Source: Patescibacteria group bacterium (lineage in GTDB: Bacteria > Patescibacteriota > Patescibacteriia > Patescibacteriales > UBA12465). Taken from it: a DNA stretch of 64,000 nucleotides. Every line of letters begins with the position of its first letter. Within the stretch, counting starts at the first letter, position 1. The stretch covers positions 69,550 through 133,549 of the forward strand of contig JBAZTY010000003.1 of NCBI GenBank assembly GCA_041661685.1, read 5' to 3'. The notes below the pieces were generated by a model. That model saw only the letters and a list, made by a program, of their open reading frames with translations. It was not told where the DNA came from and searched no databases. This document shows positions 7,892 through 48,025 of this stretch, piece by piece. The translations under genes were made by a program, and so were the position numbers.

Positions 7892-8572
7892 TTATTTCTC
7901 TACCCTGAGCTTATCTAAATCGACTAATTCCTGATTCTGAGAGGTTTCTGGATTATATGTTTTATAATAAAGCTCAATTAAACTCTGGGTATCTAAGCGG
8001 GCCACGGCGACACCGAGAGATTCTAAGCCACCGGTAACGCTATCGATGCGGCGATCGAGCATCTCCTGATAATTCTTAAAAGTCTTGTCCTTGAGCTTAA
8101 TAACGGTCGCTGGCTTAAGCGCTTCGCTCAATAAGCTCATGAAGCCTTTATGCTTATCGGTCAGGGGATCATAAGGCACAATAACATAGAAACGCTTATT
8201 CATAATCTTGCCCAGCGAGGTCAATTCCTTGATGTATTCAATATAGTCGGCAGTCTGAACTTTCAATAATTTATTCATCTGCTCCTTCTCTTTGTTCTTT
8301 AAGTATTCCAAATAATTATTAATATCTAACTCGCGAGACTGGATAACAATCTGAAGCGTGAAAGTCAGGTTATTTAAGAAGCGGACATAAGAATCAATGA
8401 CTGCATTCTGTTCGTCTTCGCTCTTGAGCGCGAAATTAATACTGGAAACAAGAAGCACGGCGCGCAAAGTGCCGTCCTTCATCACGACGGTGTTATCCTT
8501 AATCTCGGCAATATTCAAATATTGCTGAGTGGAGGCGCTTATTTTATTCTTAGCCAAGCCTTTTTCTGACAT
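7892..8572 (-). CDS. VirB4-family N-terminal domain encoded as a separate ORF (split virB4)
   Basis: 226 aa. The motif ...DGTLRAVLLVSSINFALKSEDEQNAVIDSYVRFLNNL resembles the N-terminal region of Gram-positive VirB4 homologues. It is separated from the ATPase ORF by TAA plus 2 codons, in the same frame. Confidence 0.5.
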   Translation of the reverse strand: MSEKGLAKNKISASTQQYLNIAEIKDNTVVMKDGTLRAVLLVSSINFALKSEDEQNAVIDSYVRFLNNLTFTLQIVIQSRELDINNYLEYLKNKEKEQMNKLLKVQTADYIEYIKELTSLGKIMNKRFYVIVPYDPLTDKHKGFMSLLSEALKPATVIKLKDKTFKNYQEMLDRRIDSVTGGLESLGVAVARLDTQSLIELYYKTYNPETSQNQELVDLDKLRVEK

Positions 8573-8591
8573 AATTAAAATTTATCCTAGT

Positions 8592-9011
8592 TTATTCTCC
8601 TTTATAGCGTCCTTTGGTATCAACGACGAGCGCCAATTCGGCCAAGCGCGATTTCTTATACATTTTCGGAGCGACTATCGGCGCGACGGCCTTGACTTCA
8701 ATATTCGTTTCGCCGATTTCAGCAGCCATGATCCGATTATTCCATACTCTTATTCCGGGACGGCGCAAAGTCTGAAAAGCATTAAGCATAAAGAGATGGA
8801 AGGGGCGGCCGTTTATCTTAACGAAGGCGAATAGAGCAGCAAAGACGAGCGTCACGATACCGACGGTCAAGAACAAGGTAAAATCGAACAACTTGTAACT
8901 GATGCCGATGATAACGGCAGCGCCGAGAATAATCATGAATTGGCGCACGGTCAGAGGGCCGATAATCTTATTTTCGACGTCGATGAATTGAGGAACGGTG
9001 AACTGCTGCAT
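8592..9011 (-). CDS. PrgI/VirB3-like small membrane protein of T4SS
   Basis: 139 aa. DVENKIIGPLTVRQFMIILGAAVIIG followed by two TM helices. Position immediately upstream of virB4 is typical for VirB3/PrgI. Confidence 0.5.
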   Translation of the reverse strand: MQQFTVPQFIDVENKIIGPLTVRQFMIILGAAVIIGISYKLFDFTLFLTVGIVTLVFAALFAFVKINGRPFHLFMLNAFQTLRRPGIRVWNNRIMAAEIGETNIEVKAVAPIVAPKMYKKSRLAELALVVDTKGRYKGE

Positions 9012-9016
9012 ATATC

Positions 9017-10486
9017 TTAAAAAACTAACTTGCTATTTAAACTGACAATCGCTTCAATCTCATCCATGCTCAGATATTCCTGATTAGCAGCCTTGCGAGC
9101 TTCAGCTATCTGTTTCAGGGGCTGGCCTTTCGCGATTGCTTCTTGACCTAGACGCAGGTATAAACGGCTAACCGGACTCTGACGCCAAGCGCGAACGCCA
9201 GCAACCATCTTATCATAACCATCTTTCTCTAATAATTTTATTTTCGCGAAAACCTTAGAAGTTATTTCGGCTGGAGTCGTGCCGAGACGGCGGAAATTAA
9301 TTACATCCAAAAATTGCAATTCCTCAATCGGACCCATGACTTTCGGCATTGGCTTGATATCATGCATCTGCGGATGAGCGGCGGAGGAAGCAAGCGCTTG
9401 CTTGCCGGCTAAAGTACGGGCGGCAGCCATAGAAACTGGAGGCGTTGAAATAATCTTAGCGGCCGGAATAGCTGGAGCGAATTTAGGCGTAACAGGCGCA
9501 ACGGCTACAACTGGCGCGACTTCTTTATGCCCGCCAAAAAATTTCGTAAAGGCAGATTCATGCTTAACTGGAGCGATTTTAGGGGAAACAGGCGATATTT
9601 TCGGAGTGATTGGAACAATCGGAACGACCGGAGATACTTTCGGGGCGGTCGGAACAACAGGGGCTGGCGCAATCGGCTTAATTTCCGCAACTGGCTTATT
9701 CAAAACGACTGACTTAATTTCGGCTTTAACTTCCGGCTTAGGCAAATCTAACTGCGCCTCCGGCTTGGCTAATTCATGCTTCGTATCTAAAGGCGCTGGC
9801 ACGACAGACTTAGTCTCTCCTTTAGCTAGCGCTTGTTTTAAATTATATTCAGAACTTACCGGCGCAGCCTTATCAGCGCCGCCGATAATCTTATCTAATC
9901 GCGTCACCGGCGGCATGGAAACTGGAGCAGCTTGAGTAGTGACGGCTGGAGTAATCAATCCTTTAGAAATCCTGGTATCGCAGATCTTTAGGACGCGATC
10001 AATCTCCTCCGGGCTCAGATTCAGGCCTCCGATCTTAACGTCCTTAGATAAAGTATTACGCGTATCTATCTTACTCCTGATGCCGCGCGCGTACGTAGAA
10101 ACGATATTCTTAAAGCGGCTGATAGCGACAGCACTCGGCAGGACCAGACCCGCCTCTTTAATGACAACTTCAATATCCTTATCAAGATCTAAGGCGCGAA
10201 TCTCAGAAGTCAGTCCTAAATAATCAGCCATAGGCGCGAAGATCTTTTCCTTCAATTCTTTAACGAGCTGAGCGGCTGTTTCCGGGGTTAATAATAATTC
10301 TCCGGTCAAATAAGCTGGCAAATCCGAAAATTTCAGGCTCTTAACCATCAGTTTCATGATCACGATAGCTAAATCAACTTTATATTTCGTTTCTAATTCG
10401 GAAATAAGCGCCATCGCGGACGGCGAAGAAACCTGATCGCGCAGGTTTTTCGGAAGATTGTTGAATTGTTGTAAATAGTCGAACAT
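9017..10486 (-). CDS. Hypothetical protein with a central Pro/Val/Ala/Lys-rich low-complexity repeat region
   Basis: 489 aa with an N-terminal globular region. The central region (PVVPIVPITPKISPVSPKIAPV...) is encoded by imperfect direct repeats in the DNA, about 9470-9800. The C-terminal domain is conserved-looking. No TM helix. Confidence 0.5.
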   Translation of the reverse strand: MFDYLQQFNNLPKNLRDQVSSPSAMALISELETKYKVDLAIVIMKLMVKSLKFSDLPAYLTGELLLTPETAAQLVKELKEKIFAPMADYLGLTSEIRALDLDKDIEVVIKEAGLVLPSAVAISRFKNIVSTYARGIRSKIDTRNTLSKDVKIGGLNLSPEEIDRVLKICDTRISKGLITPAVTTQAAPVSMPPVTRLDKIIGGADKAAPVSSEYNLKQALAKGETKSVVPAPLDTKHELAKPEAQLDLPKPEVKAEIKSVVLNKPVAEIKPIAPAPVVPTAPKVSPVVPIVPITPKISPVSPKIAPVKHESAFTKFFGGHKEVAPVVAVAPVTPKFAPAIPAAKIISTPPVSMAAARTLAGKQALASSAAHPQMHDIKPMPKVMGPIEELQFLDVINFRRLGTTPAEITSKVFAKIKLLEKDGYDKMVAGVRAWRQSPVSRLYLRLGQEAIAKGQPLKQIAEARKAANQEYLSMDEIEAIVSLNSKLVF

Positions 10487-10536: not shown

Positions 10537-11475
10537 CTAGAGAGTCGTTATCGGCCGGCTCTGAGTTATATAGAATTTGCCCTGTTTATAGGCCCATTCG
10601 ATGTCGCAGGGGAATTTATAATGCTTCTCGATACCGGCGCATATCTTGGCTAGTTCTACTATCTGGCGGCCATTCAATTTCTGCTTGGACTGTCCCGATT
10701 TAGCAATCGGAACCCATTTTGTTCCGCCGGCAGAGCCTTTGATAATCTGCTTGATCTGAGGAGCGACATTGATATCTACAAGAGAATAATCCCGCTTATC
10801 TAAAACATAAGCATCGGGAGTAATCGATCCGGAAACAATCGCTTCGCCCAAGCCATAACCGGCCTCAATTATCATCTGATTCTTGTCCTTCGTCACGGGA
10901 TGGACCGTAAAGGTAATGCCGGATATTTCCGAATCGACCATAACTTGGATCACGACCGCGACGCCGACTTTTGTCTTTAATAATTTCTTCTCGTGGCGAT
11001 AAAAGATGGCGCGGGGCGTGAATAACGAGGACCAGCATTTCTTAACATTGATCAATAGGGTCTTTTCTGTAGTATTTAAATACGTTTCTAATTCTCCGGC
11101 CCAAGAAGCCGACGAAGAATCTTCGGCCGTCGCGCTAGAGCGGACCGCAACGAACTTGGCTTTCAGTTTCTTAAAATCGCTGACAATATCTTTTTCTAAA
11201 TCAACTGGCATCTTGGCGGCGGCAATTAAGTTGCGAATTTTTGCGGAAGCGCCGTCGACGGAATTGATATCTTTATAATTTACTTTCTTTAGAATCGCTT
11301 CTAATTCTTGCGTTAGGTCAGTTTCAGCGAGAAAACGATTAAAAGCTGAGGCTAAAATAACGAAACCCGAAGGAACCGGAATCTTAGCTTTAGTCATTTC
11401 TCCAAGAGAAGCTCCCTTGCCTCCAGCTTCGGCAACAGAATTTTTAGTAATCCGACTAAATGGCTTAATATACAT
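10537..11475 (-). CDS. Stand-alone PEP-synthase / pyruvate-phosphate-dikinase N-terminal ATP-grasp (nucleotide-binding) domain protein
   Basis: 312 aa. Motifs AEAGGKGASLGEM, AVRSSATAEDSSSASWAGELETYLN and CDIEWAYKQGKFYITQSRPIT match the PPDK_N domain of PpsA and rifampin phosphotransferase. It has no phosphohistidine domain and no PEP-binding TIM-barrel domain. Confidence 0.8.
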   Translation of the reverse strand: MYIKPFSRITKNSVAEAGGKGASLGEMTKAKIPVPSGFVILASAFNRFLAETDLTQELEAILKKVNYKDINSVDGASAKIRNLIAAAKMPVDLEKDIVSDFKKLKAKFVAVRSSATAEDSSSASWAGELETYLNTTEKTLLINVKKCWSSLFTPRAIFYRHEKKLLKTKVGVAVVIQVMVDSEISGITFTVHPVTKDKNQMIIEAGYGLGEAIVSGSITPDAYVLDKRDYSLVDINVAPQIKQIIKGSAGGTKWVPIAKSGQSKQKLNGRQIVELAKICAGIEKHYKFPCDIEWAYKQGKFYITQSRPITTL

Positions 11476-11546
11476 ATCATTATTATTTACTTATATTAAT
11501 ATTAGCATAAAATAACCAAAAAATGTAATTAATCAGACTTAAATTA

Positions 11547-11575
11547 TTGACAAGATTACAATAATATTATAAAAT
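11547..11575 (+). promoter_or_regulatory. Sigma70-like promoter for the histidine-phosphatase gene (TTGACA, 15-17 nt spacer, TATAAA/TAAAAT)
   Basis: TTGACA at 11547-11552 with an AT-rich -10 at 11568-11575. The start codon is at 11656. Confidence 0.4.
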
Positions 11576-11655
11576 ATTAGAAATATTTAGAACTTTAATA
11601 ACAAACAAATCACCTCATAAACCTCTGGTCCCGTAGTTAACGGGTCTATTACTCG

Positions 11656-12255
11656 ATGAAAACTTTAGTAATAATCCGTCACGGACGGAAAGACGAAGAT
11701 GGAACTTTGGTCGATAAGGATCAGCTCGCTGAGATTGAAAACATCGGAATCGCCGGCTTGAATGATTTAGTCAAAAAACATCAAGGACTAGTCATCTTTC
11801 ATTTAGGTACCGCTATCGAAAGGACGGGGCAAACCATAAAAGCCTACGAAAGACATCTCGATATATCTAACGCGATTAATTCTTTCGGCGGCTACTTGCC
11901 GGCTGATGCCCGCTTAGGAAGCAATAAGATTTTTAAAGAATTCAGCGAGAATCCCGAAATCGTCAAAGAAGCGGAAAGGACTACTTGGTTCAATGCTTTT
12001 AGGAGATATAATCCGAAATTCATCGAGAAGATACAAATCAACATGCTCGATGCGATTACTGATATATTCTCGCGTGTCGATGACGGCAGCTTGGTTATCA
12101 GCGCTGGCCATACGCCCATGATCGAATGGCTCGCTCTCGGCATTGACGAGAACGACCATAAAATTTCTTGCAAAATTAAACTTAAGGAATTGACCGGCTT
12201 CATCTTTACTGAAGACAAGGGGCGCATCCAAGTTACAAGGACTATCGGGTTCTAA
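11656..12255 (+). CDS. Histidine phosphatase superfamily protein (SixA/phosphoglycerate-mutase-like; RHG motif)
   Basis: 199 aa. N-terminal IIRHGRK (catalytic RHG), ERTGQT (conserved Arg) and AGHTPMIEW (second catalytic His). Encoded convergently to the swivel-domain paralogs. Confidence 0.7.
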   Translation: MKTLVIIRHGRKDEDGTLVDKDQLAEIENIGIAGLNDLVKKHQGLVIFHLGTAIERTGQTIKAYERHLDISNAINSFGGYLPADARLGSNKIFKEFSENPEIVKEAERTTWFNAFRRYNPKFIEKIQINMLDAITDIFSRVDDGSLVISAGHTPMIEWLALGIDENDHKISCKIKLKELTGFIFTEDKGRIQVTRTIGF

Positions 12256-12281
12256 ATGAACCGAATTAAAGAAATTAAAGA

Positions 12282-12310
12282 AACCGACACCAAAAGTGCC
12301 GGTTTTTTAT
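12282..12310. terminator. Bidirectional terminator between the histidine phosphatase gene and paralog A
   Basis: 9-bp stem AACCGACAC/GTGCCGGTT with one mismatch, followed by a T-run; preceded by an A-rich stretch. Confidence 0.5.
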
Positions 12311-12311
12311 T

Positions 12312-14207
12312 TTATTTTATTATCCTCACTATTCCTTTATCCGCATCGACTTCGACGAGGTCGCCATCTTTCAGGACTTTAGTCGCGATCCTGGTGGCGA
12401 TGACGCAAGGCACGTTCATTTCACGAGCGACAATAGCCGCATGCGAAGTTACGCCGCCTTGGTCGGTCACGAAAGCTCCGGCTTTTTTCATAGCCGGCAA
12501 TAAATCCGGCTGCGTCGAGATAGAAACGAGGATATCCCCCTTCTTCATCTTTTCCATATCGCGGATAACATTAACGATCCGAACGATCCCCTTGGCTTGT
12601 CCGCGGCAACCGCATTGCCCTTTCAGCTCTGAAACTTCCCTGCTCTCGTCTTTCTGGATATATTTCTTGATTATCTGCTCGGCTGCACGGCCGCTATAAT
12701 AAACTTCGGTGTCTTTGGCCGTATAATACAAGCTGAGCTTAGCGCGAGATTTTATCTCTTCCTTGTCCGATTGATGATCGAACAGAGCTGCTTTTATCTC
12801 CTTCGAAGTCATGAATCTCGTTTCTTTCAGGCTCAAACCAATACGCCGAGCTATCTCCTCTAAGAAGAAAGTCGTCTTATAAAGAGCGAAGAGCTGGGCA
12901 TAGCGGCGATATATCTTCGTCACCATGAAATCGCCCCAGGCACCGAAAAAACGAGTCGTCTTTTTTGATAGGCTTATTTTTTTGATGAGAGCCTGTTTAT
13001 CTGCCAGTACCATCTTTATCTTTTTCTCTTGGTCTCCATAGGTTTTCTTGAGGTTATTGTCTCCATTAACCAAGCGGACTAACTCTTTCAGATAATGCTC
13101 AAAATTATAGACGCCCTGCTCTTCAGTATAAATGAACTTGGTATAGAAATACTTGGCATAATGCTTCTGCAGATCATTCAATATTTTCTTATTGATCCGG
13201 TTCTTGAGAGTCCGGACGACCTCCTCGAATTTATCCTCATACTCTTTACTATGAGTATACAGGCCGAGAAATTTAACATCTTCTTCTTTGAACTTCCTGA
13301 ATAATTCCTTGAAAATGGAAAATTGCTTAGGATCAGACTGGACAGCAATACCGATCTTAATCAGAGCATCTTGCTCTTCTTTCAAGAGCGAATCCTGTTC
13401 CGGCTGAGTAAGCAGGGCGAGATATTCCTCAATTTTCGCAGCCGGAGCCTTCAGTTCTCTTAGCATCTGCTTGCCGCGATTAGTCAGATTATCGCCGAAC
13501 ATGTCAGCGGCCACCGGGATCCAGCCCCATTGATAATATTCCTGATGCACTTCTTCATGCTCCTTATAGTAGCGCCACAGCTTCTCTGAAGATACCTTAT
13601 CCAGACCGCTTTCAGGAATCTTAGCGACCGTAGCGACTAGCTTATCGGCGAAAAGTCTTATCTGAGAATTAACCTCTTCCATGAAATCGACGTCGCTCTC
13701 GAACTTGTCGACTAAATGGTCGCCTACGGCTTGCGCGTCCTGCTTATCAAAATAGAACCAGAGATGATAGCCCCGATAAACGCAAGCTTGATGCTGATAA
13801 GCTTTCCCGCCTGGCTGAGCGAATTGATTCGTAAAGCAATAAAAAGGGATGGCCATGAACCAGGGGTTAGCGTTGATGATCTCTTCGGCTAACAGCCATT
13901 CACGATTAAATATCTTCTCGACTTCTGCGCCTTTATTCTTCTGGAAAAGATTGATAAGCTCCGGCCCGATCGCATAATCGGTATTGAAGGAATAGCTTTT
14001 CTTCCTATTTTTAAGTTCTTGCGCGATTATGCCTTCCTTAATCAGCTTATCCAGTTCGCGGGTGATATTGGCCGCATCTTTCTTGACAGCCTCTCTTATT
14101 TCTAAAAAATAAAAAGACCGCTTCGGGCTGGCGGTCAGAAGCATCAATATCTCATAAGCGGTCTGCGATTTGAATAGATTCTTCATATATATATGTCTTG
14201 AAGACAA
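12312..14207 (-). CDS. PEP-utilizing-enzyme mobile (phosphohistidine swivel) domain protein, paralog A. Has an N-terminal winged-helix-like segment and a large helical domain.
   Basis: 631 aa. The C-terminus GGVTSHAAIVAREMNVPCVIATRIATKVLKDGDLVEVDADKGIVRIIK matches the PEP-utilizer swivel domain with the catalytic His. The N-terminus (TAYEILMLLTASPKRSFYFLEIREAV...ITRELDKLIKEGII) is wHTH-like. Confidence 0.7.
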   Translation of the reverse strand: MSSRHIYMKNLFKSQTAYEILMLLTASPKRSFYFLEIREAVKKDAANITRELDKLIKEGIIAQELKNRKKSYSFNTDYAIGPELINLFQKNKGAEVEKIFNREWLLAEEIINANPWFMAIPFYCFTNQFAQPGGKAYQHQACVYRGYHLWFYFDKQDAQAVGDHLVDKFESDVDFMEEVNSQIRLFADKLVATVAKIPESGLDKVSSEKLWRYYKEHEEVHQEYYQWGWIPVAADMFGDNLTNRGKQMLRELKAPAAKIEEYLALLTQPEQDSLLKEEQDALIKIGIAVQSDPKQFSIFKELFRKFKEEDVKFLGLYTHSKEYEDKFEEVVRTLKNRINKKILNDLQKHYAKYFYTKFIYTEEQGVYNFEHYLKELVRLVNGDNNLKKTYGDQEKKIKMVLADKQALIKKISLSKKTTRFFGAWGDFMVTKIYRRYAQLFALYKTTFFLEEIARRIGLSLKETRFMTSKEIKAALFDHQSDKEEIKSRAKLSLYYTAKDTEVYYSGRAAEQIIKKYIQKDESREVSELKGQCGCRGQAKGIVRIVNVIRDMEKMKKGDILVSISTQPDLLPAMKKAGAFVTDQGGVTSHAAIVAREMNVPCVIATRIATKVLKDGDLVEVDADKGIVRIIK

Positions 14208-14251
14208 TAATTATTGTCTATAAGACAATATTATCACGGAAAATAATCCTG

Positions 14252-15838
14252 TCAACCTTTTTTCTTCTTCATTAAACGCACTATTCCCTGCTCCGCGTCC
14301 ATCTCTACCGAATCGCCATCGCGGAGAACTTTAGTCGCCACCTTAGTGCCGACGATACACGGAATCCTTAATTCTCTGGAAACGATAGCAGCATGGCAGG
14401 TAATGCCGCCAGCGTCAGTAATGATTGCCGCCGCCCTCTTCATAGCCGGAACCAAATCCGGCGTAGTTGCTATTGAGACCAAGATATCGCCCTTCTTCAT
14501 CTTAGGAATATCGCTAGGAATATTAATGACTTTGATCGCGCCCCTAGCCTTGCCAGGAAAAGCACAGTCACCCGACAGTGAATTGACATTCTTGATATTC
14601 TCTCTGATGATATTCAGGCGAGCTGATATCTTTCTCGCTTCTGCTCCGCTCACATTCAGATCATCCTTGAAATCCCCGACAGAATAATACAGATTGAACT
14701 TATATCTTTCATTCAAGATAGCAACATCAAAATTATTGCCCAAGAGGAGCTCCTTGAACTCATGCGGATAAAGATAGCGGACTTGGCGGATAGCCAGATA
14801 GCGGCGGCGGCCGATTTCCTTGAATAATCTCTCGACTATCGACCAGCTATGAAACATGGAATCCTTTCTAGCCCCCTTGGTAAACACGAGATTCCTAGCA
14901 AAAGCTAATATCTCTTCGTGCTTCTTATCTATCTTGAGGTCGCGGACTAATTTCTTCTGCCTATTCAATATTTCTTGCCGACCAGCTTTCACGCCTTGCA
15001 GGGACTTCTTGGGATTCACACCCTGCCTGACCAAACTTGATAAGATATCGATAAAATACTCTCTTCCCCAAGACGGCCCGACCATGCCATAACCGAGCCA
15101 GCCGAAAGCTTTGGCATGTCGGCTAATCATCAAATCTAATCTCTTATCTAATTTTGACAATTCCCTGTCAATATCTTCGACGCCATGCTTGGCAAAGATT
15201 TTCTTCAAAGCCGGCTTACTAATGATGTGCCCCAATATCGACAGAAGTTGTTTATATTCTTCAGAGGCCTTAGCGTCCCTAGTCGGCGTCGTGAGAGTAG
15301 AGAAAGCTTCACCCAAAGAATAGTCTTGACCGGCAATCCTATCTTTGAGGTAATTCCTCAGATATTTAGAGAGGATATTTTCCCCAAAATCAGCCGCCGT
15401 CTGCATCCAATGAAGGACATGCAAGCGGCTATAGATAGCATAGTATTCATCATAAACCTTGAATAATTCCTTGTCGGAGAGCTTGGTTAAATTTATCTTC
15501 TTCAAGCTGTCAGAGGCGCGATATAGTTCGCCTTCTGCTTTTTCAAGATCTTTAAAATAACGATCGCCCCATTTCTGGTTCTTCTTAATATTCTCCAATA
15601 GCTCCAAGCCGATCTCTTTGAATTCCTGCCGAGCCACTAGCAACTGGCAGATATTATCTTGAAAGATCATTGCCAGGCATGGCATCTTTCTTTTAAAGCC
15701 ATAACTTTTAAGAAACCTATTCGCCCGGGCCGTATTCCAAGCAATACCAGCCATCATTGGATAATAATTCGGCATTTCCTCCATACAGAAGAGTTCTTGG
15801 CGGCTGACGGAAATATTTTTACGCTTACGGCTGTTCAT
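14252..15838 (-). CDS. PEP-utilizing-enzyme mobile domain protein, paralog B
   Basis: 528 aa. C-terminus GGITCHAAIVSRELRIPCIVGTKVATKVLRDGDSVEMDAEQGIVRL. The N-terminal helical domain shares the FGWLxY...G motif with paralog C. Confidence 0.7.
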   Translation of the reverse strand: MNSRKRKNISVSRQELFCMEEMPNYYPMMAGIAWNTARANRFLKSYGFKRKMPCLAMIFQDNICQLLVARQEFKEIGLELLENIKKNQKWGDRYFKDLEKAEGELYRASDSLKKINLTKLSDKELFKVYDEYYAIYSRLHVLHWMQTAADFGENILSKYLRNYLKDRIAGQDYSLGEAFSTLTTPTRDAKASEEYKQLLSILGHIISKPALKKIFAKHGVEDIDRELSKLDKRLDLMISRHAKAFGWLGYGMVGPSWGREYFIDILSSLVRQGVNPKKSLQGVKAGRQEILNRQKKLVRDLKIDKKHEEILAFARNLVFTKGARKDSMFHSWSIVERLFKEIGRRRYLAIRQVRYLYPHEFKELLLGNNFDVAILNERYKFNLYYSVGDFKDDLNVSGAEARKISARLNIIRENIKNVNSLSGDCAFPGKARGAIKVINIPSDIPKMKKGDILVSIATTPDLVPAMKRAAAIITDAGGITCHAAIVSRELRIPCIVGTKVATKVLRDGDSVEMDAEQGIVRLMKKKKG

Positions 15839-15851
15839 ATGTTTAGCAAAA

Positions 15852-17363
15852 TTATCTTATCCTCTTTATCACTTTTACTATTCCTTTTCTGGCGTCGACT
15901 TCTACTATATCGCCGTCTTTCAAAATTCGCGTAGCGATTTTTGTGCCGATAATGCAGGGAATCTTCATCTCCCTAGAGACGATAGCGGCATGGCAGGTGA
16001 CTCCGCCGGCATCAGTAATGATAGCGCTAGCGCGATTCATGGCCGGCACCAATGACGGATTAGTAGAAAAACTAACTAGAATATCACCTTTGTTAAATTT
16101 CTTAATATCGGCAACAGCATTGATAATCTTGACTGCGCCCCGCACGCGACCAGGAAAAGATACTTGGCCGGTAAAAATATCCACATTAGTCTTGATGAGT
16201 TTCGGCATCTGCATATATCTAACCATACTTTCAGCTTCTTTCCCTACCAAGACACGGCTTTTACCCTTAATAGTTACGAAAGCGGAAAGATGGAATCTCT
16301 CGGGCAATTCTTCAGCTCTCGGCCGGCGCCCAGAACGCAAGAATCCTCTAATTTCTTCTGGGGTCAAATATTTCGCTTGTGTCTGAGAACAGAAAAGACG
16401 GCGCCCTAATTCTGTAAACCATGAGCTCATCGCATAATTCAGATAATATATCTGCATCTCTTTGCGCAATTCCTTGATAAAAGAAAATTCGCGCAATAGG
16501 CGGATGTCATGACGGGCGGAAACCGATAACGAACTTTCAATCCTCTTCTGCCAAGCGCCTAATTTTTCCCTCTCTCGCTTATTAGCCGACAGGATCTTTC
16601 CCGCTTTATCTCCTGCCCTGCCTTTCAATAATTCGAAATAATACTCTGGTCCGGCAGCCTGGCCGTCATAATAATATTGCAGCCAGCCGAAGCGCCTAGA
16701 CAATGATTGCAGCTGGCGGCGCTGAGAAATATTATCCAGGTTAGCAAGCTTCGAAGCTCTTTTAAAGGCGCGCCATAGCTTCGGCTGTCTCTGCCAGCGC
16801 GCCAATAATCCCAAAGCTGCCTCAGCTTCACGGCGGACATAGGTGGCTTTGAGAGGAGTTAATAAGCGGCTAAAAATTACGCCAGGATCGCCAAAAGCAG
16901 ATAGCGAGCCGCGAATATTTTTCTCTACGAACACAGAATATTTATTATCGCCCATGTCCACATATTGCGGGATAGCAGACCAATCAGCTATCTCCAGCCA
17001 GATACGACAAAAATCGTCATAAATCTTGCTTAATCCACGCGGTGACATCTTTTTTAAATCTTTGTGCTTGAGGCTAGAGACAAATCGTTTAATTTTAGCA
17101 AAACCAATATAATGCTGCCGCACTATTTCTTCCGCCAAAGTTGAGTCAGCCTGCAAGCGCGGCAAAAAATAAGCGCCAGCGGCGGAAAATTGGCTAGCAT
17201 CCGGAGCCCAGAGCGCCTTACCTTCCTGAAAAATGAATATAGAATCGATAAATATCTTCCCTTTGGTCTTCAAACGCAGATCATAAAAAGTCTTATTCCA
17301 AAGGAGCCAAGGATGCGGCGGCACGTTATAATCTTCCGTAAAGAGAGTAAATTTTTTGGACAT
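15852..17363 (-). CDS. PEP-utilizing-enzyme mobile domain protein, paralog C
   Basis: 503 aa. C-terminus GGVTCHAAIVSREMKIPCIIGTKIATRILKDGDIVEVDARKGIVKVIK. N-terminal domain is homologous to paralog B. Confidence 0.7.
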   Translation of the reverse strand: MSKKFTLFTEDYNVPPHPWLLWNKTFYDLRLKTKGKIFIDSIFIFQEGKALWAPDASQFSAAGAYFLPRLQADSTLAEEIVRQHYIGFAKIKRFVSSLKHKDLKKMSPRGLSKIYDDFCRIWLEIADWSAIPQYVDMGDNKYSVFVEKNIRGSLSAFGDPGVIFSRLLTPLKATYVRREAEAALGLLARWQRQPKLWRAFKRASKLANLDNISQRRQLQSLSRRFGWLQYYYDGQAAGPEYYFELLKGRAGDKAGKILSANKREREKLGAWQKRIESSLSVSARHDIRLLREFSFIKELRKEMQIYYLNYAMSSWFTELGRRLFCSQTQAKYLTPEEIRGFLRSGRRPRAEELPERFHLSAFVTIKGKSRVLVGKEAESMVRYMQMPKLIKTNVDIFTGQVSFPGRVRGAVKIINAVADIKKFNKGDILVSFSTNPSLVPAMNRASAIITDAGGVTCHAAIVSREMKIPCIIGTKIATRILKDGDIVEVDARKGIVKVIKRIR

Positions 17364-17375
17364 ATTTTAATATTC

Positions 17376-17786
17376 CTAAACTCGGCAAAAACTCGACTTA
17401 TACTTTTCCGGATGATGAGCCTTTAGCCTTTTTATCTTACAGAAAAAGCGAAATCCGGCGATTTCGCTTTTTAATTGCGGCAAATCAACTTGCTGATCAT
17501 AGCCTAAGCAGATTATCTCCGGACGATATTTTTTCAGGATAAGCCAGCGGTTCTTAAGATTTCCTAAAACAGCCCTCCCTGTTATACCCAGCTCTTTAAG
17601 GGCGCGTCTAACCTTACGCTGGCGAGTCTTCTCGTCATCTTGCGGCGCACGTTTCTTAATCGCCAAGACATTCTTGTCGCGAGCAATTATGACTATCAGC
17701 TCATCGCCAAAAAGGCGGGCCTGTTTGAAATAATCCAAGTGCCCCGGATGGAGATTATCGAATGTTCCGAAAGTCATGACGCGCAT
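17376..17786 (-). CDS. Cytidylyltransferase-family nucleotidyltransferase (TagD/RibL-like, HxGH motif)
   Basis: 136 aa. TFGTFDNLHPGHLDYFKQARLFGDELIVIIARD matches the (H/T)xGH nucleotidyltransferase fold. Ends 13 nt upstream of paralog C. Confidence 0.6.
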   Translation of the reverse strand: MRVMTFGTFDNLHPGHLDYFKQARLFGDELIVIIARDKNVLAIKKRAPQDDEKTRQRKVRRALKELGITGRAVLGNLKNRWLILKKYRPEIICLGYDQQVDLPQLKSEIAGFRFFCKIKRLKAHHPEKYKSSFCRV

Positions 17787-17834
17787 AATAGAGACAAAAC
17801 ACCACTCTTCACAGAGCGGTGTTTTTATTGTTCT

Positions 17835-46186: not shown

Positions 46187-48025
46187 TTATTTATGCTCAG
46201 TTAATTTTATATCCACTATTTTCAGCTGCGCCTCTTTGCGTCCATTGAAACCATTAACTTCTAAATAGTAAACCAGATCAACGACATCGCCGACTTTGAA
46301 ATCCTTATATTCTTGGGCTGCTCCGAAAGCTAGGGCCCAAAAAGAATTGGCGCGGCCAGTCTCATGATTGACAGACGAGAAGCGAAACTTGATATGCTGA
46401 TTATCAAAACCCATGGTCGTAATATCATCCAGACGGAGATTATAGGAAACAAAACGCGGCTGCTGATTATTCTGGCCGTAAGGCGCGAAAGCGCTGATCT
46501 TCTCAGCGAGATCAAGACTAACATTATCAAATTTCAATTCCGTTTCGATCTTCAACTTAGGCGTCAGCATTTCAGCGGTCAACTTTTCCGCGGCTAAAAC
46601 CAAGAGCTGTACCTTGAATTCAGCCAGCTTCCCTTCTTCTTTAATCGAAAAACCGCAAGCCATAGGATGGCCGCCGTATTTATCTAATTTATCGGCGCAA
46701 GCTTCTACCGCCGCGATGAGATTGAATTCTTCAACCGAACGGCCGGAACCTTTGAAAGATATCTTCTTCGGCACGAACTTCTTAGTCGCGGCGTCGAATT
46801 CCGCTTCTTCTATCAGACGCGTAATTATCAAAGTCGGACGATAATATTTTTCCGCGATGCGGCCGGCCACTAAGCCGATCACGCCTTCATTCCAAACCTG
46901 ATCTTCCTGAGCAACACCGATAATAACCAGCGGGATATTATCTTTATCTATTTGCGCTTCAACTTGAGAAGTTATCTCTTCGGTAATCTGCTGGCGGCTG
47001 ATATTGCGCTGATTCAATTCTGAGGCCAGGCTGGCCGCTTCCTCGCCGTCAGTCGTCGTCAAAAGCGCAAAGGCACTGTTGGCGTGCGCTAAGCGACTGG
47101 CCGCATTCAAGCGCGGCCCAATCTGCCAGCCGATATTCCAGGACTCTAGCTGACGACCGCCATTAACCTTAGCGACTTTGATTAATTCGTTCACGCCTAA
47201 GCGTTTATTCTCATTCAAAATTTTCAAACCCTCTTTTACTAATAACCGGTTCTCTCCTAAAAGACTGACCATATCCGCGACCGTGCCGATTGCGACTAGA
47301 TCCAAGCATTTCTCGCTGATTAATTGTTTCTGCTTATCAGACAAATTCGCTTTAGTAAGCAAGGCGCTAACGAGCTTAAAAGCGACGCCGACGCCAGCCA
47401 GATAGCGCCAAGGATAGCCAGAATTAGGATCGGAGGGGTTTACCAATAGGCAATCCGGCAGATCAGCCGGATCTTCCGGCAAGATATGATGATCGGTAAT
47501 AATGATATCTAAGCCTTTCTGTTTCGCATAAGCGACCTCGTCTTTATTTCTCGTGCCGTTATCAACGGTGATGACTAGCTTGAATCCTTGTTTCACGATA
47601 GAATTTATCGCCATCTTATTTAAACCATAGCCTTCAGTGACGCGATCAGGCAGATAGACCTCGACCTCGGCATGAAGAATATGTAATGTCTCTAAGAGAA
47701 TCACGGAAGACGTGACGCCATCGGCGTCGTAATCGCCATAGACAACGATGCGATTTCCCGCTTTGATATGAGAAATAATTAAGTCGACGGCCGCATTCAT
47801 GCTCTTAAATAGAAAAGGATCATAAAAAGCCGAAGTTCCCTCGCCGTATGAGCGGGTCTTCTCCGGTTCTAGCGACCCCTTCAGGAACATATCGATAGAA
47901 GAATTTTCTTCTAAGCCTCTATTATAGAGCAATTGCAAAATGACCGGATTGAGTTCCGGGTGAGCGGCTGCGAATTCAGCCGGCATGGCTTTAAGAAGTT
48001 CCCATTTCTTGGTTTTCATGATCAT
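46187..48025 (-). CDS. recJ: Single-stranded-DNA-specific exonuclease RecJ
   Basis: 612 aa. DHH motifs (GDYDADGVTS, ITDHH), DHHA1 domain and C-terminal OB-fold region. Confidence 0.8.
   Translation of the reverse strand: MIMKTKKWELLKAMPAEFAAAHPELNPVILQLLYNRGLEENSSIDMFLKGSLEPEKTRSYGEGTSAFYDPFLFKSMNAAVDLIISHIKAGNRIVVYGDYDADGVTSSVILLETLHILHAEVEVYLPDRVTEGYGLNKMAINSIVKQGFKLVITVDNGTRNKDEVAYAKQKGLDIIITDHHILPEDPADLPDCLLVNPSDPNSGYPWRYLAGVGVAFKLVSALLTKANLSDKQKQLISEKCLDLVAIGTVADMVSLLGENRLLVKEGLKILNENKRLGVNELIKVAKVNGGRQLESWNIGWQIGPRLNAASRLAHANSAFALLTTTDGEEAASLASELNQRNISRQQITEEITSQVEAQIDKDNIPLVIIGVAQEDQVWNEGVIGLVAGRIAEKYYRPTLIITRLIEEAEFDAATKKFVPKKISFKGSGRSVEEFNLIAAVEACADKLDKYGGHPMACGFSIKEEGKLAEFKVQLLVLAAEKLTAEMLTPKLKIETELKFDNVSLDLAEKISAFAPYGQNNQQPRFVSYNLRLDDITTMGFDNQHIKFRFSSVNHETGRANSFWALAFGAAQEYKDFKVGDVVDLVYYLEVNGFNGRKEAQLKIVDIKLTEHK

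Follow-up and report, generated by a model that had tools for sequence, protein, structure and literature searches.

We looked at a gene cluster in a stretch of 64,000 nucleotides (nt) of DNA from a Patescibacteria group bacterium (assembly GCA_041661685.1, contig JBAZTY010000003.1, positions 69,550 to 133,549 of the forward strand), called the window below. We focused on paralog A, a protein with a phosphohistidine domain and, at its N-terminus, a winged helix-turn-helix (wHTH) module. The cluster lies on the minus strand between 10.5 and 17.8 kb and holds, in the order of transcription, a cytidylyltransferase-like gene, the paralogs C, B, and A, a gene for a protein of 199 amino acids (aa) on the opposite strand, and an ATP-grasp gene. 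In a three-way alignment the paralogs are 29% identical to one another, A being 29% identical to each of B and C. The genes and the hairpin at the locus are as follows.

10537..11475, minus strand: stand-alone ATP-grasp (PPDK_N) subunit, 312 aa; PF01326 E 1.5e-94; sole copy in the window
11656..12255, plus strand: 199-aa protein, a relative of the histidine-phosphatase superfamily, with an RHG...R...H pattern
12281..12305, no strand: hairpin rich in GC, between the convergent genes of A and of the 199-aa protein, likely a terminator, with the better T-tract on the plus strand
12312..14186, minus strand: paralog A, true coding sequence, 624 aa plus stop; wHTH, then a helical domain resembling the substrate-binding domain of rifampin phosphotransferase (RPH), then a phosphohistidine swivel domain
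14252..15838, minus strand: paralog B, 528 aa, predicted H-type subunit without wHTH
15852..17363, minus strand: paralog C, 503 aa, predicted H-type subunit without wHTH
17376..17786, minus strand: cytidylyltransferase-like (nucleotidyltransferase) gene, 136 aa; 12 nt before C, heading the C-B part of the cluster

An original prediction, made from the letters of the DNA alone, had proposed that the first residues of A form a wHTH. The peptide that it quoted was found in the minus-strand open reading frame (ORF) 12312..14207, but A does not really start at the TTG (14207) with which this ORF opens. Over 100 Patescibacteria protein clusters cover 99% of A at 42-98% identity; their members are 621-639 aa long and begin MKNLFKS. 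A 98%-identical protein encoded in the same gene order (assembly GCA_942492765.1, contig OW818634.1, 895,742 bp) was called at 624 aa. The length (623-629 aa in those orthologs that fixed the start) and the common beginning of these orthologs therefore place the start of the coding sequence at ATG 14186. The TTG chosen by the ORF finder (14205-14207) is the first triplet of the second of two palindromes, described below as operator 2.

In the alignment with B and C, A is longer by about 95 residues at its N-terminus, as had been noticed from the sequence. The FGWLxY motif that is strong in B and C (FGWLGY/FGWLQY) and was said to be weak in A aligns there to YFYTKFIY. Two elements were delimited in the extension.

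13986..14165, minus strand: winged helix-turn-helix, residues 8-67, from DSSP of the models, Foldseek, a profile against the PDB, and Pfam across 35 members
13908..13967, minus strand: helix 74-93 after the wing, equivalent to ArsR alpha5 or to the C-terminal helix of Sso10a; candidate linker or dimerisation element

The AlphaFold2 model of full-length A, computed with a 57-sequence alignment, had a mean predicted local distance difference test score (pLDDT) of 88.9 and a predicted TM-score (pTM) of 0.81. It contains helices 8-19, 27-34, and 38-50, a beta-hairpin 54-59/62-67, and helix 74-93, and the enzyme body begins at about residue 97. The pLDDT of the wHTH block was 84-92. When the 100-residue N-domain was modelled in isolation, the same fold was obtained with a pLDDT of 93-95 over residues 11-70; helix 74-93 was less confident there than in the full-length model, and we infer a possible role in dimerisation for it. 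The N-terminal segment is thus an autonomous winged helix with a beta-wing and not just the first helices of a helical domain shared with B and C, so that the proposal of a wHTH-like N-terminus held. When the isolated domain was compared with the PDB by Foldseek, only wHTH DNA-binding proteins were matched (E 8.5e-5 to 1e-3, TM-score normalised to the query, TMq, 0.52-0.68), among them HpaR (MarR family), SqrR (ArsR family), MepR, ZitR, AdcR, TubR, Sso10a-2, and 3cuo. The matches include E. coli MarR with operator DNA, and several of the matched structures were solved with operator DNA. At the sequence level, a profile of 35 N-domains retrieved MarR/ArsR structures from the PDB with E-values of 1e-4 to 1e-2 (3nrv 1e-4, 22oz 2e-4, 6j05 1e-3). 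The residues S7, N40, R43, and E44 are invariant among the N-domains, and the last three lie in H3 (38-50), the predicted recognition helix.

The assignment to a known family was less direct. The Pfam MarR model scored 17.4 bits on the window protein (E=0.004) and 20.1 bits on the isolated domain (5.8e-4), for a gathering score of 24.6, and A does not reach membership of the MarR family by its Pfam MarR/MarR_2 score. Across the 35 N-domains, HVO_A0114 was matched in 31, MarR in 18 (E<0.01), and ArsR HTH_5 in 17, a signal which exceeds chance and which, although sub-threshold for the window protein alone, is consistent throughout the family. The helices that flank MarR-type domains and form their dimer were not found at both ends, because the wHTH of A begins at residue 8; one helix only (74-93) stands between it and the enzyme body. 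The ArsR topology (alpha1-alpha2-alpha3-alphaR-beta-beta-alpha5) fits the H1-H2-H3-wing-H4 of A if alpha1 is missing, HTH_5 being without a match in the window protein, and residues 1-95 hold no Cys or His for metal or redox sensing of the ArsR type (alpha3N and alpha5 sites).

In an exhaustive profile search of 1.84 billion representative proteins, 324 had this wHTH subtype at E<=1e-10. Three length classes can be told apart, of about 580-626 aa (fusions to a dikinase), about 185-236 aa (with a C-terminal domain of no known type), and about 100 aa. A 192-aa protein with an A-type N-domain passes HTH_20 (28.4 against 27). Judged from these sequences, the wHTH of A is an ArsR-like module used in several architectures. 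The 185-236-aa proteins (P0138, P0140, P0143, P0204, and about 100 similar ones) consist of the wHTH and an unannotated C-terminal domain of about 100 aa, and are probably a family of small regulators sharing the DNA-binding module of A.

The gap of 44 bp between the stop codon of B and the ATG of A reads, on the coding strand, TTGACA-ggattattttccgtga-TAATAT-TGTCTTATAGACAA-taatta-TTGTCTTCAAGACAT-atatat-ATG, and contains the following elements.

14250..14255, minus strand: -35 hexamer TTGACA, found by promoter scan and conserved in orthologous loci
14228..14233, minus strand: -10 hexamer TAATAT of the extended type (TG upstream), spacer 16 nt; sigma-70 promoter
14214..14228, no strand: operator 1, perfect palindrome TTGTCTtatAGACAA, 15 bp, which overlaps both the -10 and the predicted start of transcription; position weight matrix (PWM) score 21.5
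14193..14207, no strand: operator 2, TTGTCTtcaAGACAt, 15 bp, ending 6 nt before the ATG; PWM score 14.0

Operator 1 begins on the last T of the -10. Six bases separate the two operators, whose centres are 21 bp apart, that is, two helical turns. The TGA stop codon of B (14252-14254) lies inside the -35 hexamer of A (tTGAca), so that the promoter and the dual operator are packed into the gap. The pattern TGTCT-N3-AGACA occurs exactly twice in the 64 kb, both times in front of the ATG of A, and six times when up to one mismatch is allowed, for 0.82 expected from shuffles. In a scan for the dual site, the gap upstream of A was the only position in the window. With the PWM only the two sites of A scored highly, a marginal match of 12.3 bits at 47330 being at chance level (0.8 per shuffle). 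A search for an operator-like repeat had been suggested in two other intergenic regions of the cluster. In 11476-11655, only AT-rich imperfect palindromes (71-83% complementary) were detected, with no PWM match even at a threshold of 5; in 17787-17834, the metK terminator accounts for the inverted repeat (17796-17825; a stem of 13 bp, then a T-run). The predicted operator is actually at 14193-14228, directly upstream of A and in part within the ORF (12312-14207) on which the original prediction was made.

To define the conservation of this arrangement, 41 loci encoding wHTH-bearing orthologs of A were retrieved, representing 36 distinct upstream regions (numbers preceded by L denote retrieved loci). 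The orthologs from the metagenome scan were found with a 240-aa alignment and are 39-77% identical to A over its first 240 residues. A contig scan with the alignment of full-length A mostly gave distant homologs, through generic swivel patterns, and was used only as a background set. The dual-operator architecture was present in 33 of the 36 distinct regions. It consists of a TTGAC(A/T) -35, a 16-18-nt spacer, a TAnnAT -10, two copies of TTGYYT-N3-ARRCAA separated by 6 nt, and an ATG usually 4 nt further on. The best dual-site score was 22-24 of 24 in these 33 regions, and a score of 20 was not attained by any of 7,200 composition-matched shuffles. All 66 operator sites carry G3 and C13 without exception. 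In 31 of the 33 loci, the end of the -10 reaches 0-2 nt into operator 1, indicating that operator 1 covers the transcription start.

Of the 41 loci, 40 had PWM matches of at least 14 bits in the 260 nt upstream of A. At the same threshold, loci of close homologs lacking the wHTH gave three matches in 173 kb, none of them upstream of the gene, and more distant loci gave seven in 823 kb. Proteins of the A type that lack the N-module (about 536 aa) have no such upstream repeats. The operator and the wHTH are thus strictly associated, and the DNA-binding role that had been proposed for the module is supported by a conserved dual palindromic operator, which lies over the promoter where the gene bears the wHTH and is missing in homologs without it.

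As the sites stand between the -10 and the ATG, they are mostly transcribed, and they could belong to an RNA or translation-level leader element, or be bound by another regulator, with the wHTH of A having a non-DNA role such as protein contact, dimerisation, or substrate recognition. We regard this as very improbable. In its favour, wHTH domains sometimes serve non-DNA roles, and an unusual control of initiation is conceivable, no Shine-Dalgarno sequence being evident between operator 2 and the ATG. Against it, the two arms of the palindromes do not covary: at operator positions 5/11, the pairs C-G, C-A, T-G, and T-A were counted 12, 15, 19, and 20 times, so that C-A is as common as C-G, and at positions 4/12 there are ten C-A for four C-G. 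The absence of base-pair covariation between the half-sites argues for a DNA site and not an RNA hairpin. Moreover, operator 1 has its left arm on the -10, hence upstream of any plausible transcription start, and no Rfam match was found for the operator or leader element. An RNA hairpin was ruled out on these three grounds (covariation, geometry of the -10, and Rfam), and the palindromes thus have the behaviour of a protein-binding DNA site, degenerate and with two-fold symmetry, and not that of structured RNA. As for another regulator, the motif occurs only where the gene carries the wHTH and is absent upstream of wHTH-less homologs, no other conserved regulator gene was found in the neighbourhoods of A orthologs that were examined, and the invariant residues of the N-domain concentrate in the recognition helix. 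We also looked for a stand-alone wHTH gene beside wHTH-less A-type genes (a "Rosetta stone" split), and none was found.

Some features of the leader were observed alongside. Between operator 2 and the ATG, the A orthologs typically have 'atat' and the window has 'atatat' (14187-14192), without a Shine-Dalgarno-like sequence, and translation initiation on the AT-rich A leader of about 33 nt may be unconventional. A few loci have a longer leader between the dual operator and the ATG, of 138 nt in L083 and L112, 78 nt in L113-L115, and 49 nt in L111. That of L083 has internal complementary segments such as caccccgttaaataaa...tttatttaacggggt, and no Rfam match.

A DNA-binding function of the N-module predicts that different modules on the same enzyme body should be paired with different upstream repeats, and this is what was observed in relatives. 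In the clade of L120, L122, and L130/L131, the A-type proteins (581-583 aa) have no wHTH and carry in its place a different N-module of about 45 residues, MV(K/Q)ALIEIDDETNKILNL.KAKY...DKGQA...VKRFK. Three copies of ACTAAGT/ACTTAGT, spaced by 10-11 bp, stand directly upstream of their ATG (about 40 nt). Searches of Pfam, NCBIfam, PHROGs, and PDB sequences with this module gave nothing significant; from its beta-alpha-alpha residue pattern we would guess that it is ribbon-helix-helix (RHH)-like. The module and its repeats look like a second, independent solution in which a DNA-binding module and an operator are added to an A-type enzyme. Other H-type paralogs of related genomes carry an N-terminal wHTH that is 30-44% identical to that of A. 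One such paralog outside the window is of the B type, with the body motif CIEEMPNYYPMM. The gene at L081 2363 has before its ATG its own distinct, perfect 15-nt inverted repeat, AGTTATGCTAATTTA-N14-TAAATTAGCATAACT. The gain and loss of the wHTH among the paralogs, as read from these sequences, is dynamic, the B of the window being without it. The genes concerned are as follows.

L120 4899-6647, L122 4923-6668, L130/L131 4926-6677: A-type homologs with the alternative N-module (MVKALIEIDDETNKILNL.KAKY..)
L081 2363-4099 and 4197-6014; L085, L095-L097, L100, L101, L103: paralogs with their own wHTH

More distant H-type homologs, without ATP-grasp and with a C-terminal swivel domain, are common in DPANN archaea (Woesearchaeota, Micrarchaeota, Nanoarchaeota) and in bacteria of the candidate phyla radiation (CPR) (L001-L080). 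A Micrarchaeota match, L006, aligns from residue 1 of A and may also carry an N-terminal module.

The enzyme part of A was then considered. It ends with the swivel domain that is typical of phosphoenolpyruvate (PEP)-utilising enzymes.

12315..12629, minus strand: C-terminal PEP-utiliser swivel domain of A, residues 555-625 of the 631-aa ORF; PF00391 88.5 bits against a gathering score of 23.1
12441..12443, minus strand: codon of the phospho-carrier His582 in GGVTSHAAIVARE, from the translation; invariant in 57 homologs

The PF00391 swivel domain is found at the C-terminus of A, B, and C alike (E about 1e-25), and exactly three swivel domains occur in the 64 kb of the window, besides a single ATP-grasp gene and a single wHTH of the type of A. 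The motif GGVTSHAAIVARE of A fits the swivel signature GGxTS/CHAA (G-G-x-T-S/C-H-A-A) described in PMC12167813, and the domain matches the swivel domains of PEP synthase and RPH in the PDB. Upstream of it, full-length A was matched by Foldseek to the rifampin phosphotransferase RPH-Lm (5hv1, 5fbt, 5fbu, 5fbs) over 600-690 columns with E-values of 7e-13 to 4e-11 (7e-13 to 5e-12 for 5hv1 and 5fbt); with a TMq of 0.47-0.48 and 12-14% identity, the resemblance is at the level of the fold only. The other enzymes matched (pyruvate kinase, PPDK, and Enzyme I) span the swivel domain alone. The family profile aligns residues 454-622 of A to 701-866 of RPH, beyond the RPH catalytic residues R666/E667/K670. 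The fusion of the extension to a helical domain and a PEP-utiliser His domain, which had been read from the sequence, was thus confirmed by the match of the modelled body to RPH and by PF00391. The substrate-binding body of A is strongly conserved, with dozens of invariant residues.

Databases name many homologs of A PEP synthase. In A, neither a PEP/pyruvate-binding TIM barrel nor an ATP-grasp on the same chain was found, nor any other PEP synthase domain, in Pfam, NCBIfam, and PDB searches. The NCBIfam PEP synthase model is matched at positions 343-460 of 798 only, with a score of 119.6 for a cut-off of 598, and PEP synthase was rejected as the identity of A. Since the TIM barrel is missing, the database name is wrong. 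In contrast, the models give A a helical body resembling the rifampin-binding domain (RIF-binding domain) N-terminal to its swivel domain, and a separate subunit with PPDK_N only is encoded alongside. This is the arrangement, documented by biochemistry, of HpeHI, CreHI, and PpsAB (phenylphosphate synthase), in which ATP-grasp is on one polypeptide (HpeI) and the substrate-binding and swivel domains are on the other (HpeH) (PMC12167813). The ATP-grasp protein of the window (10537-11475) matches the first 310 or so residues of the PEP synthase, RPH, and PigC models, and is presumed to be the I-type partner common to A, B, and C. The locus would therefore encode a split, "two-component" small-molecule dikinase of the HpeHI/PpsAB type with three alternative H-type subunits for one I-type subunit, and A would be an H-type subunit of this RPH-like enzyme, a catalytic role which we deduce from the models.

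Compared with HpeHI, CreHI, and PpsAB, the split is the same (10537-11475 corresponds to HpeI, and A, B, and C to HpeH), and so is the swivel motif T/S-x-x-G-G-x-x-x-H. Those systems have one H per I subunit and no DNA-binding domain, and serve aromatic catabolism in free-living bacteria, whereas here three H-type paralogs accompany one ATP-grasp gene, one of them has a wHTH and an operator, and no similarity is detectable outside the swivel domain. RPH-Lm (5HV1, 5FBT; PMC4844700), the best structural match to the body and swivel domain of A, differs in being a single chain with ATP-grasp fused at the N-terminus and in lacking a wHTH.

The genes around A in other genomes bear on what the operator would control. 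The usual order is several H-type paralogs, the opposite-strand gene of the 199-aa type, the promoter-operator, A, sometimes one or two further paralogs, and the ATP-grasp gene on the strand of A. Fifteen ortholog loci have the ATP-grasp gene downstream of A on its strand, nine of them immediately after A and six after one or two further paralogs, and in those genomes the operator would therefore control the shared ATP-grasp subunit too. An arrangement with the 199-aa gene between A and the ATP-grasp gene is seen in the window, in L144 (a near-identical relative of it), and in L099. Because the intervening gene is on the opposite strand and the hairpin at 12281-12305 follows A, the operator here probably controls A alone. 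In L082, L083, and L086, A is isolated (neither a paralog nor an ATP-grasp gene lies within 7 kb) but keeps its operator, which points to autoregulation as the core function. Related genomes carry up to six or seven H-type paralogs, and A is much more conserved than B or C.

In the 199-aa protein, R8, H9, R56, and H152 are invariant in the alignment. It has no Pfam match of its own, and a PDB sequence search with it found nothing; its ortholog in L084 passes Pfam His_Phos_1 (26.1 bits for a gathering score of 21.7). The gene adjoins A in about 24 of the 41 loci, usually divergent and upstream, while it is downstream and convergent in the window. On the strength of the residue pattern and of the Pfam match of this one ortholog, the protein could be a product phosphatase or a phosphohistidine phosphatase.

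Two further groups of neighbours were noted. Cytidylyltransferase-like homologs are also found upstream of the paralog arrays in L090 and L107, and the presence of such a gene beside these arrays hints at a nucleotide-activated substrate or product. On the 3' side of the ATP-grasp gene is a set resembling type IV secretion/conjugation genes (a PrgI-like protein of 139 aa, a TraC-like protein of 226 aa, and a DUF87/TraG-type ATPase), at 7892-10486 on the minus strand of the window, at 9994-14349 in L081, and at 11474-15878 in L085; it is syntenic with the dikinase cluster in several Patescibacteria genomes.

In our opinion, A is probably a bifunctional protein, both an H-type dikinase subunit and an autorepressor which acts through its wHTH on the dual operator. 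We infer that A binds the operator, that it does so as a dimer, that it represses, and that it is catalytically active. In the mechanism that we propose, A, unlike B and C, would have gained an ArsR/MarR-like winged helix at its N-terminus and would bind the two 15-bp palindromes (TTGYYT-N3-ARRCAA), with one dimer per palindrome and the two dimers on one face of the DNA. As the palindromes run from the last base of the -10 nearly to the start codon, A would block transcription initiation of its own gene and, in many related genomes, of the co-transcribed ATP-grasp gene as well. It would also be an active H-type subunit working with the ATP-grasp protein 10537-11475. As to the release signal, we would speculatively prefer that the substrate is bound and/or that the ATP-grasp subunit phosphorylates His582, which would lower the affinity for the operator and let expression follow demand; sequestration in a complex of A with the ATP-grasp protein is another speculative option. 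The histidine-phosphatase-like neighbour could act on the product or on the phospho-His. It seems rather unlikely, though not negligibly so, that the swivel phospho-His, charged by ATP-grasp and perhaps reset by this neighbour, directly gates the wHTH.

Several points weigh against this dual role. The operator is assigned to the wHTH of A by co-occurrence, and L084, L086, and L116 appear to have one good palindrome only. The Pfam wHTH scores of the window protein itself fall short of the gathering thresholds. Sequence similarity to characterised dikinases covers only the swivel domain and the last helix of the body, the rest being at the level of the fold (TM about 0.47), and the enzymatic activity and the substrate of A are read from models. 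Finally, the opposite-strand gene and the hairpin cut the ATP-grasp gene of the window off from A, so that the operator may control A alone, and the PWM scan found no further operator beyond the two sites of A in the 64 kb.

The same wHTH and operator would be expected if A were a sensor or transcription factor and not a working enzyme, with ATP-grasp as the kinase, the swivel His as the receiver, and the phospho-state or a ligand of the body switching the wHTH. Such a phosphohistidine relay with a DNA-binding output would be the strongest version of the coupling of phosphorylation to gene regulation that the original prediction had put forward. It would suit a regulator that A is more conserved than B or C and stands alone in L082, L083, and L086, and the conserved neighbour of the histidine-phosphatase superfamily could reset the phospho-His. 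On the other hand, the whole substrate-binding body is conserved, as expected of a catalytic pocket, the only operator of the window precedes A itself, no regulon is visible beyond A (and the ATP-grasp gene elsewhere), and nothing ties the phospho-state to DNA affinity. We give this explanation perhaps one chance in five.

Another explanation would be that the wHTH tethers the dikinase to a DNA-borne substrate (the end of a DNA molecule, a modified base, or a protein bound to DNA); the conserved site would then serve for loading. In its favour, enzymes of the RPH family phosphorylate hydroxyls on varied molecules (PMC4844700, PMC12167813). Contrarily, the site is always on the promoter and transcription start of the gene itself, in a fixed geometry which is the signature of autoregulation, and has no other copies in the 64 kb, which makes tethering extremely unlikely.

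Enzymes with an N-terminal DNA-binding domain are known, among them PutA (RHH and proline dehydrogenase), BirA (wHTH and biotin ligase), NadR, and the archaeal RbkR (wHTH and riboflavin kinase), and they bind operators at the promoter of their own gene or pathway. The enzyme-repressor logic proposed for A follows theirs, and RbkR (PDB 5TRD) is among the Foldseek matches of full-length A, at rank 47. A differs from them in its enzyme class and in that the fusion partner is one subunit of a split enzyme with a mobile phosphohistidine domain. With the MarR and ArsR/SmtB repressors it would share the wHTH fold and short palindromic operators over the -10 and the transcription start; unlike them, it is fused to an enzyme body of 530 residues, and it has neither the MarR dimer helices nor the Cys/His of ArsR metal sites. 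A phosphohistidine relay related to PEP-utiliser enzymes informs transcription in regulators controlled by the phosphotransferase system (PTS), such as the PRD-containing MtlR, LicT, and LevR, and Mlc. The PRD regulators use PRD and EIIA/EIIB-like domains that are phosphorylated by HPr or EII, and we know of no PTS-controlled regulator that carries a swivel domain itself. Unlike in those systems, no PTS components were seen at the A locus. For the split dikinases, HpeH is a mixture of monomers and dimers in solution (PMC12167813).

In the full-text literature, we found no paper on a swivel-domain or RPH-like dikinase with a DNA-binding domain, on its operator, or on paralog arrays in CPR. Automatic annotation already names some A orthologs "winged helix-turn-helix domain-containing protein", and the bare wHTH-swivel architecture is therefore not a discovery. 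The combination, in A, of two known kinds of protein (two-component RPH-like dikinases and enzyme-repressor fusions) has not been described previously. The results correct the misleading database names "phosphoenolpyruvate synthase" and "PEP-utilizing enzyme". They also extend the two-component small-molecule dikinase family, which has been recognised only lately, to CPR, with more distant relatives in metagenome-assembled genomes of DPANN archaea, and point to arrays of alternative substrate-binding subunits which would share one ATP-grasp subunit. One dikinase subunit would have turned into an enzyme-repressor, possibly twice independently if the N-module of the second clade also binds DNA; the different modules and repeats of other clades suggest that fusing a DNA-binding module to a dikinase subunit is a recurrent solution. 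If the phospho-His gates the wHTH, this would be a new phosphohistidine module (from an ATP-grasp 'kinase' to a swivel-His carrier and a DNA-binding output), widespread in Patescibacteria and distinct from two-component systems and PTS/PRD regulators.

The genomes of Patescibacteria (CPR) are tiny, and very few transcription factors can be recognised in them. To our knowledge, almost no regulator-operator pairs have been defined experimentally for these bacteria, and their transcriptional regulation is almost unexplored. The locus described here gives a sharply defined and widely conserved candidate pair, a wHTH of about 95 residues and a dual operator of 36 bp, open to tests in vitro or in E. 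coli that do not require the organism to be cultured.

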